Sequence record: NC_003298.1
Reading direction: 5' to 3' (one strand)
DNA: 38,208 nucleotides
Source of the DNA: Enterobacteria phage T3
Shown: in pieces, positions 2,976 to 17,045 of the stretch
Layout of the letters: each line of letters opens with the position of its first letter
Position numbering within the stretch: position 1 is the first letter of the stretch
Program-made: the position numbers and the translations under genes
Notes under the pieces: model-generated
Told to the model about the DNA's origin: nothing
The model's input: the letters and a program-made list of their open reading frames with translations, nothing else
Database searches by the model: none

Positions 2976-5630
2976 ATGAACATCATCGAAAACATCGAAA
3001 AGAATGACTTCTCAGAAATCGAACTGGCTGCTATCCCGTTCAACACACTGGCTGACCACTACGGAAGCGCCTTGGCTAAAGAGCAGTTGGCTTTAGAACA
3101 TGAGTCTTATGAGCTAGGCGAGCGCCGCTTCCTCAAGATGCTTGAGCGTCAAGCGAAAGCTGGTGAGATTGCAGACAACGCAGCCGCTAAGCCGTTACTC
3201 GCTACGCTTCTCCCTAAGTTAACCACACGTATCGTCGAGTGGCTCGAAGAGTACGCATCGAAGAAAGGCCGCAAGCCTAGCGCATACGCACCGCTCCAGT
3301 TACTCAAGCCGGAGGCCTCCGCGTTTATCACCCTGAAAGTTATCCTTGCGTCACTAACCAGTACGAACATGACAACCATTCAGGCCGCTGCTGGTATGCT
3401 GGGGAAAGCCATTGAGGACGAGGCACGATTTGGGCGCATCCGTGACCTAGAAGCGAAGCACTTCAAGAAGCACGTTGAGGAACAGCTTAACAAGCGCCAC
3501 GGGCAAGTCTACAAGAAAGCATTTATGCAGGTGGTCGAGGCCGATATGATTGGTCGAGGTCTGCTTGGTGGCGAGGCGTGGTCTAGCTGGGATAAAGAAA
3601 CCACGATGCACGTAGGGATTCGCCTGATTGAAATGCTGATTGAATCCACGGGTCTGGTGGAATTACAGCGCCACAACGCAGGTAACGCAGGCTCTGACCA
3701 TGAGGCACTGCAACTGGCCCAAGAGTACGTGGACGTATTAGCGAAGCGTGCAGGCGCTCTGGCGGGTATCTCTCCGATGTTCCAGCCGTGTGTCGTACCG
3801 CCGAAACCTTGGGTAGCAATCACAGGGGGCGGCTATTGGGCTAACGGTCGCAGACCTTTGGCACTCGTTCGCACTCACTCTAAGAAGGGCTTGATGCGCT
3901 ACGAAGACGTTTACATGCCAGAAGTCTACAAGGCTGTGAACCTCGCGCAAAACACCGCATGGAAAATCAACAAGAAAGTTCTTGCTGTTGTCAATGAGAT
4001 TGTTAACTGGAAGAATTGCCCGGTAGCAGACATTCCATCGCTGGAGCGCCAAGAGTTACCGCCTAAGCCTGACGACATTGACACCAACGAGGCAGCGCTC
4101 AAGGAGTGGAAGAAAGCCGCTGCTGGTATCTATCGCTTGGACAAGGCACGAGTGTCTCGCCGTATCAGCTTAGAGTTCATGCTGGAGCAGGCCAACAAGT
4201 TCGCAAGTAAGAAAGCAATCTGGTTCCCTTACAACATGGACTGGCGCGGTCGTGTGTACGCTGTGCCGATGTTCAACCCGCAAGGCAACGACATGACGAA
4301 AGGTCTGCTGACCCTTGCTAAAGGCAAGCCAATCGGTGAGGAAGGTTTCTACTGGCTGAAAATCCACGGTGCGAACTGTGCGGGTGTTGATAAGGTTCCA
4401 TTCCCGGAGCGCATCGCGTTCATTGAGAAGCACGTAGACGACATTCTGGCTTGCGCTAAAGACCCAATCAATAACACTTGGTGGGCTGAGCAGGATTCAC
4501 CGTTCTGTTTCCTCGCGTTTTGCTTCGAGTATGCAGGCGTTACGCACCACGGTCTGAGCTACAATTGCTCTCTGCCGCTGGCGTTCGACGGGTCTTGCTC
4601 TGGTATCCAGCACTTCTCCGCGATGCTCCGCGATGAGGTAGGCGGTCGTGCGGTTAACCTGCTGCCAAGCGAAACCGTGCAGGACATTTACGGCATCGTT
4701 GCACAGAAAGTAAACGAGATTCTCAAACAGGATGCAATCAACGGCACGCCTAACGAGATGATTACCGTGACCGACAAGGACACCGGGGAAATCTCAGAGA
4801 AGCTCAAACTTGGAACCTCAACGCTGGCGCAACAGTGGCTGGCATATGGTGTAACCCGTAGCGTAACTAAACGTTCGGTCATGACGCTGGCTTACGGTTC
4901 CAAGGAGTTCGGCTTTCGTCAACAGGTATTGGATGACACCATTCAGCCTGCAATTGACAGCGGTAAGGGCTTGATGTTCACCCAACCGAACCAAGCGGCT
5001 GGCTATATGGCTAAGCTGATTTGGGATGCGGTAAGCGTGACCGTAGTTGCAGCGGTTGAGGCGATGAACTGGCTCAAATCTGCCGCTAAGCTGCTGGCTG
5101 CTGAGGTCAAGGACAAGAAGACCAAGGAGATTCTGCGCCACCGTTGCGCGGTTCACTGGACTACGCCGGACGGCTTCCCGGTCTGGCAGGAATACCGCAA
5201 GCCACTCCAGAAGCGTCTCGATATGATTTTCTTAGGGCAATTCCGTCTGCAACCGACGATTAATACCCTCAAGGATTCAGGCATTGACGCACACAAGCAG
5301 GAGTCTGGCATCGCTCCTAACTTTGTTCACTCACAGGACGGTAGCCACCTCCGCATGACAGTCGTTTATGCTCACGAGAAGTATGGCATTGAGTCCTTTG
5401 CGCTCATCCATGACAGCTTTGGGACTATCCCGGCAGACGCTGGTAAGCTCTTTAAGGCTGTGCGTGAAACGATGGTTATCACCTATGAGAACAACGATGT
5501 GCTGGCAGACTTCTACTCTCAGTTTGCCGACCAGCTACACGAGACCCAACTGGACAAGATGCCTCCGCTTCCGAAGAAAGGAAACCTGAACCTGCAAGAC
5601 ATTCTCAAGTCTGACTTTGCCTTTGCATAA
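2976..5630 (+). CDS. 1: Single-subunit DNA-dependent RNA polymerase, T3 specificity
   Basis: 884-aa ORF; specificity-loop segment KRLDMIFLGQFRLQ has Asp (codon 5220-5222) where T7 RNAP has Asn748; T7 numbering anchored by counting R746/R756/Q758 in the remembered T7 sequence. Confidence 0.97.
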   Translation: MNIIENIEKNDFSEIELAAIPFNTLADHYGSALAKEQLALEHESYELGERRFLKMLERQAKAGEIADNAAAKPLLATLLPKLTTRIVEWLEEYASKKGRKPSAYAPLQLLKPEASAFITLKVILASLTSTNMTTIQAAAGMLGKAIEDEARFGRIRDLEAKHFKKHVEEQLNKRHGQVYKKAFMQVVEADMIGRGLLGGEAWSSWDKETTMHVGIRLIEMLIESTGLVELQRHNAGNAGSDHEALQLAQEYVDVLAKRAGALAGISPMFQPCVVPPKPWVAITGGGYWANGRRPLALVRTHSKKGLMRYEDVYMPEVYKAVNLAQNTAWKINKKVLAVVNEIVNWKNCPVADIPSLERQELPPKPDDIDTNEAALKEWKKAAAGIYRLDKARVSRRISLEFMLEQANKFASKKAIWFPYNMDWRGRVYAVPMFNPQGNDMTKGLLTLAKGKPIGEEGFYWLKIHGANCAGVDKVPFPERIAFIEKHVDDILACAKDPINNTWWAEQDSPFCFLAFCFEYAGVTHHGLSYNCSLPLAFDGSCSGIQHFSAMLRDEVGGRAVNLLPSETVQDIYGIVAQKVNEILKQDAINGTPNEMITVTDKDTGEISEKLKLGTSTLAQQWLAYGVTRSVTKRSVMTLAYGSKEFGFRQQVLDDTIQPAIDSGKGLMFTQPNQAAGYMAKLIWDAVSVTVVAAVEAMNWLKSAAKLLAAEVKDKKTKEILRHRCAVHWTTPDGFPVWQEYRKPLQKRLDMIFLGQFRLQPTINTLKDSGIDAHKQESGIAPNFVHSQDGSHLRMTVVYAHEKYGIESFALIHDSFGTIPADAGKLFKAVRETMVITYENNDVLADFYSQFADQLHETQLDKMPPLPKKGNLNLQDILKSDFAFA

Positions 5631-12417: not shown

Positions 12418-12440
12418 AATTAACCCTCACTAACGGGAAC
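12418..12440 (+). promoter_or_regulatory. T3-type promoter, class II (phi4.3)
   Basis: AATTAACCCTCACTAACGGGAAC. Confidence 0.85.
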
Positions 12441-13042: not shown

Positions 13043-15157
13043 ATGCTCGTAAGTGACATTGAGGCCAACAACCTCTTAGAGAAAGTCACCAAGTTTCACT
13101 GTGGCGTCATCTATGACTACCGTGATGGTGAGTATCATAGTTATCGTCCGGGCGACTTCGGGGCGTATCTGGATGCGCTGGAAGCCGAGGTGAAGCGAGG
13201 TGGGCTTATTGTTTTCCATAACGGTCACAAGTATGACGTTCCTGCATTGACCAAACTGGCAAAGCTGCAATTGAACCGAGAGTTCCACCTTCCTCGTGAG
13301 AACTGTATCGACACCCTTGTGCTGTCACGCTTGATTCACTCTAACCTAAAGGACACCGATATGGGTCTTCTGCGTTCCGGTAAACTTCCGGGGAAACGCT
13401 TTGGGTCTCACGCTCTGGAGGCGTGGGGTTATCGCTTAGGCGAGATGAAGGGTGAATACAAGGATGACTTTAAGCGTATGCTTGAAGAGCAAGGCGAAGA
13501 ATACGTTGACGGAATGGAGTGGTGGAACTTCAATGAAGAGATGATGGACTATAACGTTCAGGACGTTGTGGTCACTAAGGCTCTCCTTGAGAAGCTACTC
13601 TCTGACAAACATTACTTCCCTCCTGAGATTGACTTTACGGACGTAGGTTACACTACGTTCTGGTCAGAATCCCTTGAGGCCGTTGATGTTGAACATCGCG
13701 CTGCATGGCTACTCGCTAAGCAAGAGCGCAATGGATTCCCGTTTGACACGAAAGCAATCGAAGAGTTGTACGTAGAGTTAGCTGCTAGACGCTCTGAGTT
13801 GCTACGTAACTTGACCGAAACGTTTGGCTCGTGGTATCAACCTAAAGGTGGAACAGAAATGTTCTGCCATCCACGAACAGGTAAGCCACTACCTAAATAC
13901 CCTCGCATTAAGATACCTAAAGTTGGTGGTATCTTTAAGAAGCCTAAGAACAAGGCACAGCGAGAAGGCCGTGAGCCTTGCGAACTGGATACCCGCGAGT
14001 ACGTTGCTGGCGCTCCTTATACTCCAGTGGAGCACGTAGTGTTTAACCCTTCGTCTCGTGACCACATCCAGAAGAAACTCCAAGAGGCTGGGTGGGTCCC
14101 AACTAAGTTCACCGATAAGGGTGCTCCTGTGGTGGACGATGAGGTACTCGAAGGAGTACGCGTAGATGACCCTGAGAAGCAAGCGGCTATCGACCTCATT
14201 AAAGAGTACTTGATGATTCAGAAGCGAATCGGACAGTCTGCTGAGGGAGACAAGGCATGGCTTCGTTACGTTGCTGAGGACGGTAAGATTCATGGTTCTG
14301 TTAACCCTAATGGAGCAGTTACGGGTCGTGCGACCCATGCGTTCCCCAACCTTGCGCAAATTCCGGGTGTACGTTCTCCTTATGGAGAGCAGTGTCGCGC
14401 TGCTTTTGGCGCTGAGCACCATTTGGATGGGATAACTGGTAAGCCTTGGGTTCAGGCAGGTATCGACGCATCCGGCCTTGAGTTGCGCTGCTTGGCCCAC
14501 TTCATGGCTCGCTTTGATAACGGTGAGTATGCTCACGAGATTCTTAATGGTGACATCCACACTAAGAACCAGATGGCTGCTGAATTACCTACCCGTGATA
14601 ACGCTAAGACGTTCATCTATGGGTTCCTCTATGGTGCTGGTGATGAGAAGATTGGGCAGATTGTTGGTGCTGGTAAAGAGCGCGGTAAGGAACTCAAGAA
14701 GAAATTCCTTGAGAACACACCTGCGATTGCAGCACTACGTGAGTCTATACAACAGACGCTTGTCGAATCCTCTCAGTGGGTAGCTGGTGAGCAGCAAGTC
14801 AAGTGGAAACGCCGCTGGATTAAAGGTCTGGATGGTCGTAAGGTACACGTTCGTAGTCCTCACGCTGCCCTGAATACCCTACTGCAATCCGCTGGTGCTC
14901 TCATCTGCAAACTGTGGATTATCAAGACCGAAGAGATGCTCGTAGAGAAAGGCTTGAAGCACGGCTGGGATGGGGACTTTGCGTACATGGCATGGATACA
15001 CGACGAAATTCAGGTAGCTTGTCGTACCGAAGAAATCGCTAAGACTGTCATAGAGGTCGCACAAGAAGCGATGCGTTGGGTTGGAGAGCATTGGAACTTC
15101 CGTTGCTTACTCGACACCGAGGGTAAGATGGGAGCCAACTGGAAAGAATGTCACTAA
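13043..15157 (+). CDS. 5: DNA polymerase (family A)
   Basis: 704 aa, same length as T7 gp5; AAAGGAGG SD. Confidence 0.97.
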
Positions 15158-15167
15158 TGGAGGTATT

Positions 15168-15473
15168 ATGGGAGGCGTTGCAACATTGCGGTTTCACAAG
15201 ATGCCTACCGGATGTATCGTGTGCGTTTCCCATAAGAGAAACCAAGATGGATACTTCCGGTATAGCATAGGGTCTTCTCGTAAAGGTGAGAAGAAACACT
15301 TTATGTTTCATCGATGGGTGTGGGAACAACATAAAGGTCCGATACCAGATGGTTACGAGATAGACCACATATGTCTTAATAGAGGTTGTTGTAACGTAGA
15401 GCACCTACAGTGTATACCAAAGCGAGACCACATTATTAAGACAAACAAAGAGCGTAAACTTGTCAAGAAATAA
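15168..15473 (+). CDS. 5.3: HNH endonuclease (homing endonuclease-like)
   Basis: 101 aa from the ATG at 15168 (SD GGAGG); HNH motif ...EIDHICLNRGCCNVEHLQCIPKRDH... Confidence 0.8.
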   Translation: MGGVATLRFHKMPTGCIVCVSHKRNQDGYFRYSIGSSRKGEKKHFMFHRWVWEQHKGPIPDGYEIDHICLNRGCCNVEHLQCIPKRDHIIKTNKERKLVKK

Positions 15474-15486
15474 AGGAGAAATTATT

Positions 15487-15783
15487 ATGGCTATCACTAA
15501 GAAATTTAAAGTGTCCTTTGATGTTACCCTTAAGCTGGACAGCGAGACCGAAGAACTGATGCGAGAAAAGATTCTGGACTTAGCGCATCGTGCTGGTGCT
15601 GGTGAGGAGATTACTCCTATGGACCGAGAGTTGCTCGTTCAGGCCCTAACACGCGGTCCAGACGGTGCTGCTGCATTTGCTGTACGCCAAGGTATCCGTA
15701 ATGCTGTCAAGGAGATGTTCGAAGAGACTAGTGATAAATCACTGTTAAAACTCTCTCCTGCAACTGTACGGGAGGTGTTCTGA
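15487..15783 (+). CDS. 5.5: gp5.5 (H-NS-binding protein in T7)
   Basis: 98 aa from the ATG at 15487 preceded by AAGGAG. Confidence 0.7.
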   Translation: MAITKKFKVSFDVTLKLDSETEELMREKILDLAHRAGAGEEITPMDRELLVQALTRGPDGAAAFAVRQGIRNAVKEMFEETSDKSLLKLSPATVREVF

Positions 15784-16150: not shown

Positions 16151-17045
16151 CCTTAAACAATTCTACGAGTTACGTGAAGGCTGTGACGACAAAGGTATCC
16201 TTGTGATGGATGGAGACTGGCTGGTCTTCCAAGCGATGAGTGCTGCTGAGTTTGATGCCTCATGGGAGGAAGAGATTTGGCACCGCTGCTGCGACCACGC
16301 TAAGGCCCGTCAGATTCTTGAGGATTCCATTAAGTCCTACGAGACCCGCAAGAAGGCTTGGGTAGGTGCTCCGATTGTCCTTGCGTTCACCGATAGTGTT
16401 AACTGGCGTAAAGAACTGGTTGACCCGAACTACAAGGCTAACCGCAAGGCAACCAAGAAACCTGTAGGTTACTTTGAGTTCCTTGAGGCTCTCTTTGAGC
16501 GTGAAGAGTTCTATTGCATCCGTGAGCCTATGCTTGAAGGTGATGACGTTATGGGAGTTATCGCTTCCAACCCGTCTGCATTCGGTGCTCGTAAGGCTGT
16601 AATCATCTCGTGCGATAAGGACTTTAAGACCATCCCTAACTGTGACTTCCTGTGGTGTACCACTGGTAACATCCTGACTCAGACCAAAGAGACCGCTGAT
16701 TGGTGGCATCTCTTCCAGACCATCAAGGGTGATATGACCGATGGCTACTCCGGGATTCCCGGCTGGGGCGATACGGCAGAAGGTTTCCTGAATGACCCGT
16801 TCATTGTGGAGCCTGTAGAGTCCGTGTTGAAGTCTGGTAAGAACAAGGGGCAGACAGTAACCAAGTGGGTGAAGCGTGCTCCTGATGCGACTGAGACTCT
16901 GTGGGACTGCATTAAATCCATTGGTGCAAAGGCTGGGATGACCGAGCAGGAAATCATCAAGCAAGGCCAGATGGCTCGCATTCTTCGCTTCGAGGAATAC
17001 AATTACATTGACAAGGAGATCTACTTATGGACGCCGCGAAGCTGA
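16137..17045 (+). CDS. 6: 5'-3' exonuclease
   Basis: 302-aa ORF at the gene 6 position and size. Confidence 0.92.

Follow-up and report, generated by a model that had tools for sequence, protein, structure and literature searches.

Gene 5.3 of Enterobacteria phage T3 lies between gene 5, which encodes the DNA polymerase, and gene 5.5. For its analysis we used the sequence record NC_003298.1 as one window of 38,208 nucleotides. A sequence-only reading had described the open reading frame of 101 aa at 15168-15473, directly downstream of the polymerase gene, as an HNH endonuclease gene. This was confirmed by the Pfam family HNH_3 (E=4.6e-19) and by a predicted fold similar to that of I-HmuI; T3 gene 5.3 is already annotated and already known as a nuclease gene. 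The features of the region are as follows:

13043..15157, plus strand: gene 5, coding for the T7-type DNA polymerase (704 aa, uninterrupted; open reading frame and annotation); it holds the putative target of gp5.3
14990..15015, plus strand: putative gp5.3 target in its presumably resistant T3 form, codons W651-I652-H653 and D654-E655 of motif C on the two sides of the insertion point (intron mapping, TGGAT versus TGGGT)
14992..15157, plus strand: co-conversion tract, the 3' end of gene 5 which travels with 5.3 (mismatch break, controls, patch shared with vB_YpYeO9)
15159..15163, plus strand: Shine-Dalgarno sequence GGAGG of gene 5.3, 4 nt 5' of the ATG, read from the sequence
15168..15473, plus strand: coding sequence of gene 5.3 for a 101-aa HNH (beta-beta-alpha-metal) nuclease, very probably a homing endonuclease gene of the free-standing kind (open reading frame, annotation, Pfam, AF2 model, dN/dS)
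15474..15489, plus strand: right junction with the gene 5.5 ribosome-binding site and start codon ATG, AGGAGAAATTATTATG (junctions of T3, phiA1122 and T7)

Coordinates and protein of gene 5.3

The open reading frame of gene 5.3 extends from the ATG at 15168 to the TAA at 15471-15473 (306 nt, 101 aa plus stop) and starts 11 nt past the stop codon of gene 5 (TAA 15155-15157). The sequence-only reading had preferred this ATG behind GGAGG to the earlier start of the mechanical open reading frame inside gene 5. The latter was located at an in-frame TTG at 15081. The start at 15168 is supported by the position of the gene in GenBank, by the N-terminus MG(G/K)V of most full-length homologs, which is aligned to this start, and by the tblastn matches of gp5.3 in related genomes, which begin at query residue 1. 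In GenBank, T3 gene 5.3 is annotated at the matching position in X17255 (1989) and NC_047864 (offset +2), with the product names 'HNH endonuclease' and 'homing endonuclease'. A 1.3-kb stretch around 5.3 matches the coliphage T3 and T7M entries in GenBank at 100% identity.

The nearest T3 RNA polymerase promoters are located at 12419 and 17161. Gene 5.3 therefore lacks its own promoter and is transcribed along with the class II genes. A search for an RNA structure that masks the ribosome-binding site of 5.3 gave nothing significant (z=+0.8). The translation start of 5.3, GGAGGTATTATG (15159-15170), resembles that of gene 5.5, GGAGAAATTATTATG (15474-15489), and a short imperfect direct repeat thus brackets the 5.3 insert. 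This repeat could be a recombination joint or a mere likeness of two ribosome-binding sites.

The HNH motif EIDHICLNRGCCNVEHLQCIPKRDH comprises residues 64-88 of gp5.3. The flanking Cys and His residues pointed out in the sequence-only reading are present in the translation, with C16, C19 and H22 upstream of the motif and C69, C74, C75, C82, H79 and H88 in and around it. The HMM search proposed there gave a strong hit for HNH_3 (68.2 bits, cut-off 24.8) and a weaker one for the zinc-binding loop family of homing endonucleases. PHROG assigned gp5.3 to endonuclease and HNH families with E-values down to 1e-28. In an alignment of 18 homologs, H48, H79 and H88 are invariant, and at least 90% of the sequences share C16, H67, C69, N71, C74 and N76. 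By analogy, H67, N76, H79 and H88 would provide the catalytic His, the structural Asn and the metal-ligand His or Asn. In the AF2 model of gp5.3 (pLDDT 84), strands at residues 63-67 and 80-84 are followed by a helix at 85-90, the predicted beta-beta-alpha fold.

The best match of the model in the PDB is I-HmuI of Bacillus phage SPO1 (1u3e; probability 1.00, query-normalised TM-score 0.57, 87 aligned columns), followed by I-PpoI entries. A search of solved structures with the gp5.3 sequence gave chance-level matches only. Like gp5.3, I-HmuI is an HNH protein; it is a nicking homing endonuclease which targets a phage DNA polymerase gene. However, the two proteins share only 21% identity, and I-HmuI is longer (174 aa), with extra C-terminal DNA-binding helices. 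Unlike gp5.3 it is intron-encoded, and its intron is inserted at a different position of the polymerase (PMC3428280).

The homologs of gp5.3 fall into two groups, a short one of 98-111 aa and a long one of 131-143 aa with a C-terminal helix-turn-helix. All short homologs examined in their genomic context are located downstream of gene 5. T3 gp5.3 has no C-terminal helix-turn-helix and ends in the alignment where the long subfamily runs about 35 residues further. Between 5.3 carriers, dN/dS is 0.02-0.17 (pairs with unsaturated dS), which indicates that gp5.3 is being kept functional.

The junction between genes 5 and 5.5

By megablast, 677 phage records match the DNA flanking 5.3, and only 114 records encode a gp5.3 homolog of at least 60% identity. 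For a survey of the junction we used 80 IMG/VR relatives which were retrieved with the gp5 C-terminus:

Junction empty, gene 5 leading straight into gene 5.5: 55 of 80 loci
Junction with T3-type 5.3: 2 of 80
Junction with T7-type 5.3: 4 of 80
Junction with other small open reading frames: 6 of 80
Intron-encoded HNH form in gene 5: 1 of 80
Junction that could not be scored: 12 of 80

The synteny comparison suggested by the sequence-only reading thus showed that 5.3 is not conserved at this locus. The gene was found in T3, the phiYeO3-12 group, Teseptimavirus (vB_YpYeO9, PGX1), Kayfunavirus (ZG49, pO91) and Przondovirus (TUN1, KN1-1), always directly after gene 5. Citrobacter phage SH1 does not have the gene, whereas SH2 and phiYeO3-12 do (PMC4925675). 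A clean empty site is present in phiA1122, where the stop codon of gene 5 is followed by TTCTAT and the ribosome-binding site of gene 5.5. In place of these 6 nt, T3 carries 316 nt (15158-15473) including 5.3. The identity to 5.3-less relatives resumes at 15474..15489, with sliding identities of 91-100% from 15450-15480.

T7 also carries a gene named 5.3 at the gene 5/5.5 junction. However, its product is an unrelated nuclease of the PD-(D/E)XK type (118 aa; Pfam PDDEXK_5, E=1e-10), to which T3 gp5.3 shows no similarity. This T7-type gene was found at the same junction in L009 (2684-3040; T7 16483-16839), L013, L021, L058 and L075. Two different nuclease families hence occur at the gene 5/5.5 junction, and the shared name '5.3' is misleading. 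Other open reading frames are located there in L028 (3600-3869), L040 (3642-3905), L060 (3600-3812), L063 and L073 (3600-3778) and L094 (3561-3738). They represent at least three unrelated kinds of about 55-82 aa, with no nuclease motif recognisable by translation alone.

The junction is a general hotspot for gene insertion. Its alternative contents, of which there are at least five, and the sharp identity break flanking the gene (see below) bear out the earlier suggestion of a recombination hotspot. In Escherichia phage pO91 (L004), a second gene with an HNH motif was found at 3804-4187, just upstream of the exonuclease gene and in addition to the 5.3 homolog; its product is 40% identical to gp5.3 over residues 28-89. 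The records OR786095.1 ('Staphylococcus phage MBBL139') and MT350292.1 ('Enterococcus phage EFA-1'), both of about 40 kb, encode a gp5.3 of 84% identity in the usual place. Both resemble T7-like phages of enterobacteria, and their host labels are doubtful.

Intron site and identity break in gene 5

In 13a, Bas102 and the IMG/VR contig L099, gene 5 is split by an intervening sequence which carries an HNH open reading frame of 131 aa, and this protein is 48% identical to gp5.3 over residues 7-101. The bounds of the intron were set from the joined CDS annotation and blastn. By blastn against gene 5 of T7 and T3, the 601-nt insert of 13a falls between nt 1959 and 1960 of the gene. In T3 this corresponds to the position between 15001 and 15002, between His653 and Asp654 in polymerase motif C, 166 nt upstream of the ATG of 5.3. 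The introns of phiI and W31 are located in motif C, at Pol I position 881 (PMC3428280), and I-TslI, the enzyme of the phiI intron, nicks DNA at a site whose core comprises 9 bp (PMC8136825). The free-standing enzyme in these systems is directed at the position where the intron inserts (PMC3984707, PMC2988022). The likely target of gp5.3 is this position in gene 5, a point that goes beyond the sequence-only reading. The sequences flanking 5.3 were compared by eye with the putative target and showed no resemblance to it.

T3 5.3 itself is not embedded in an intron, as gene 5 forms one uninterrupted open reading frame of 704 aa. This is stronger evidence than the Rfam scan, which at the gathering threshold detected no group I intron in the T3 window and also missed the annotated intron of 13a, probably because an open reading frame sits inside that intron.

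Nearly all 5.3-less alleles and the exons of intron-bearing alleles have the sequence TGG GTN CAY GAY (Trp-Val-His and Asp, with the insertion point between His and Asp). All 5.3 carriers depart from TGGGT at positions -9 to -5. TGGAT, with Ile652, is found in T3, vB_YpYeO9, PGX1, TUN1, KN1-1, phiYeO3-12, L016, L017 and L018; of the other carriers, the ZG49 group has TTTGT, and L019 and L020 have TTCAG. The link between variant and carriage is a correlation only, and three 5.3-less relatives (L084, L087 and L100) also have Ile652. These relatives may have kept a resistant allele after losing the gene, or Ile could be ancestral in their lineages.

A second insertion site in gene 5 was observed in L086 (2372-3000) and L100 (2321-3000), between NAKTF and IYGFLYGAG. 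It corresponds approximately to the position between 14614 and 14615 in T3, gp5 residues 524 and 525 in motif B. One of the inserts (629 and 680 nt) carries an HNH-like and the other an Endo VII-like open reading frame (CxxC...HCH...CHNCN). Both are probably further group I introns, like that of Yersinia phage Berlin (PMC6083498).

The DNA around the intron site was analyzed by a sliding comparison of T3 with phiA1122, T7, 13a and 64795_ec1. The identity of T3 to these four phages is 92-100% along gene 5 to about 14990 and then 70-85% over the last ~160 nt. After the stop codon of 5.3 it is back to 91-100% against phiA1122 and 64795_ec1. Between T3 and phiA1122 there are 29 mismatches in 890 nt upstream (3.3%), compared to 38 in 166 nt (23%) from -10 to +155 of the intron site (Fisher p=1e-15). 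The same jump was found for vB_YpYeO9/L029, PGX1/L029, TUN1/L083, KN1-1/L045 and phiYeO3-12/L038. In these six pairs of phages with and without the gene, which belong to three clades, the mismatch rises from 2-5% to 20-30% and remains elevated as far as the gene 5 stop. The rise is 5- to 15-fold and starts 10-60 nt upstream of the intron site (p 1e-11 to 1e-30). As controls we used 276 pairs of comparable upstream divergence in which both phages are without the gene; here, the downstream mismatch has a median of 5.4% and a maximum of 12.7%.

Gene 5.3 and the gene 5 3' end behave as one cassette in their divergence. Between TUN1 and KN1-1, for example, the identity is 94% upstream and falls to 76% in the gene 5 3' end and 77% in 5.3. 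T3 and Yersinia phage vB_YpYeO9 share a 98% identical patch with different flanks; the proteins encoded by their 5.5 alleles have only 50% identity. The 5.3-linked gene 5 3' ends of different clades are 69-77% identical to each other, so that a recent transfer between clades was shown only for T3 and vB_YpYeO9. We also considered phiYeO3-12 as donor of the T3 patch and rejected it, since its gene 5 3' end is only 75% identical.

Two allele classes were observed for gene 5.5 (15487-15783). The T3 allele is 91-94% identical to those of phiA1122 and 64795_ec1 and only about 50% identical to those of T7, 13a, vB_YpYeO9 and PGX1. The DNA identity recovers near 15750, which indicates a second mosaic boundary just right of 5.3.

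Probable homing and alternative explanations

[quoted passage not shown] The gene would be expressed with the class II DNA-metabolism genes, without a promoter of its own. During co-infection with a related 5.3-less phage, gp5.3 would nick or cut gene 5 of that phage at the motif C codons (Trp-Val-His and Asp-Glu), where other T7-like phages carry a group I intron. During repair off the T3 copy, conversion would then start at the break, take in the last ~160 nt of gene 5, bring in 5.3 and end in the conserved start of gene 5.5. The variant site of T3, TGG ATA CAC GAC instead of TGG GTN CAY GAY, probably protects its own polymerase gene. The analysis shows the nuclease family and fold, the patchy presence, the empty site, the mapped intron position, the repeated identity break and the correlation of the variant site with carriage; the cleavage, its exact position, its type (nick or double-strand cut) and the self-immunity of T3 are inferred from these.

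Two marks of homing were observed. Among close relatives, the presence of the gene at its fixed locus is sporadic and a clean empty site exists, and a co-conversion tract lies between the target site and the endonuclease gene (six pairs versus 276 controls). The sequence-only reading had regarded the gene as a selfish homing element, which is supported by the patchy presence, the intron-encoded relative and the conversion footprint. Some points speak against homing: the 101-aa gp5.3 contains no C-terminal helix-turn-helix, which makes its reading of a long site hard to explain, the 5.3-linked gene 5 3' ends of different clades are dissimilar, three 5.3-less alleles carry Ile652, and the junction also takes up open reading frames in which no nuclease motif is recognisable.

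Bonocora & Shub (2004, 2009) studied T3 gene 5.3 alongside I-TslI, the intron endonuclease of phiI/W31; it is the same gene as the one described here, which is 100% identical to the T3 records. The enzymes of the I-TslI type (13a, Bas102 and L099) share the HNH_3 core with gp5.3, and their intron site is the putative gp5.3 target. Unlike gp5.3, they are encoded inside a 601-nt group I intron and consist of 131 aa with a C-terminal helix-turn-helix. Their host allele is protected by the intron, which splits the site, whereas T3 would need base changes. T3 gp5.3 has reportedly been shown to cut intronless gene 5 at the intron site, and citing papers report site-specific cleavage of the allele without the gene and its preferential inheritance in crosses. 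The name F-TslI for the T3 enzyme was found in none of the papers listed. The break in the six pairs at the intron site and the correlation of Ile652 and TGGGT with carriage are useful detail and may already be published. SegG and MobE of T4 and F-CphI of a cyanophage are likewise encoded by free-standing genes beside the target gene, cut at a distance, and lead to co-conversion of the DNA between cut site and endonuclease gene (PMC2790892, PMC6083498). However, their targets differ, and they are either members of other nuclease families (GIY-YIG, Endo VII) or HNH proteins of greater size.

The strong purifying selection on gp5.3 would also fit a domesticated enzyme, which serves the phage in host DNA breakdown, recombination or replication-linked processing and whose position reflects this function and not homing. 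The location among DNA-metabolism genes, with which 5.3 is co-transcribed (nearest promoters at 12419 and 17161), points in the same direction. However, most close relatives with the same replication module do not have the gene, including phiA1122, which is 97% identical in upstream gene 5, and elsewhere the site holds an unrelated nuclease or small open reading frames. A housekeeping role also leaves the identity break at the intron insertion site unexplained, and we consider domestication improbable. Homing endonuclease genes are expected to degenerate once they are fixed. Accordingly, gp5.3 might be a decaying or inactive remnant which does not cut specifically and persists by hitch-hiking after loss of its DNA-binding helix-turn-helix, as the free-standing subfamily of 98-111 aa does not contain the C-terminal ~35 aa with this element found in the intron-encoded subfamily. 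Against such decay stand the dN/dS of 0.02-0.17 and the catalytic and zinc-ligand positions, all of which are kept across genera. Four phage clades also maintain the short form, as would be expected of an architecture that works, and the 98% identical patch of T3 and vB_YpYeO9 in different backgrounds points to recent movement. An inactive remnant is thus quite improbable.

Small phage HNH proteins of about 100 aa can act as terminase cofactors in DNA packaging in other phage groups (PMC8845596), a role mentioned in passing in the sequence-only reading. For gp5.3, a function of this kind, as known from HK97-like phages (gp74 type), was rejected. The neighbours of the gene are the DNA polymerase gene and 5.5 and not the terminase genes, it is absent from most T7-like relatives, which nevertheless package normally, and the closest fold match of its product is a homing endonuclease. 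Position and distribution effectively refute this role.

The practical value of the preferred reading, homing by gene conversion, is small; it confirms a classic phage gene as a selfish nuclease. The exchanged patch at about 14992-15473 (the last ~170 nt of gene 5 plus 5.3) should be excluded from phylogenies and recombination analyses of T7-like phages. The footprint provides a testable target in polymerase motif C, with the TGGGT/TGGAT difference at codon 652. If the reading is true, an enzyme of 101 aa without a helix-turn-helix still achieves site specificity. [quoted passage not shown] It is possible, although doubtful, that 5.3 and the last ~160 nt of the polymerase gene form a co-evolving cassette which exists in several specificity types. 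Such types are suggested by the cassettes of TUN1 and KN1-1, which differ by about 24% in both parts. In this case, an enzyme of 101 aa without a helix-turn-helix would still achieve site specificity, and rival endonuclease variants, each tied to its own resistant polymerase allele, would compete in mixed infections, and this competition would drive the diversification of the polymerase C-terminus.
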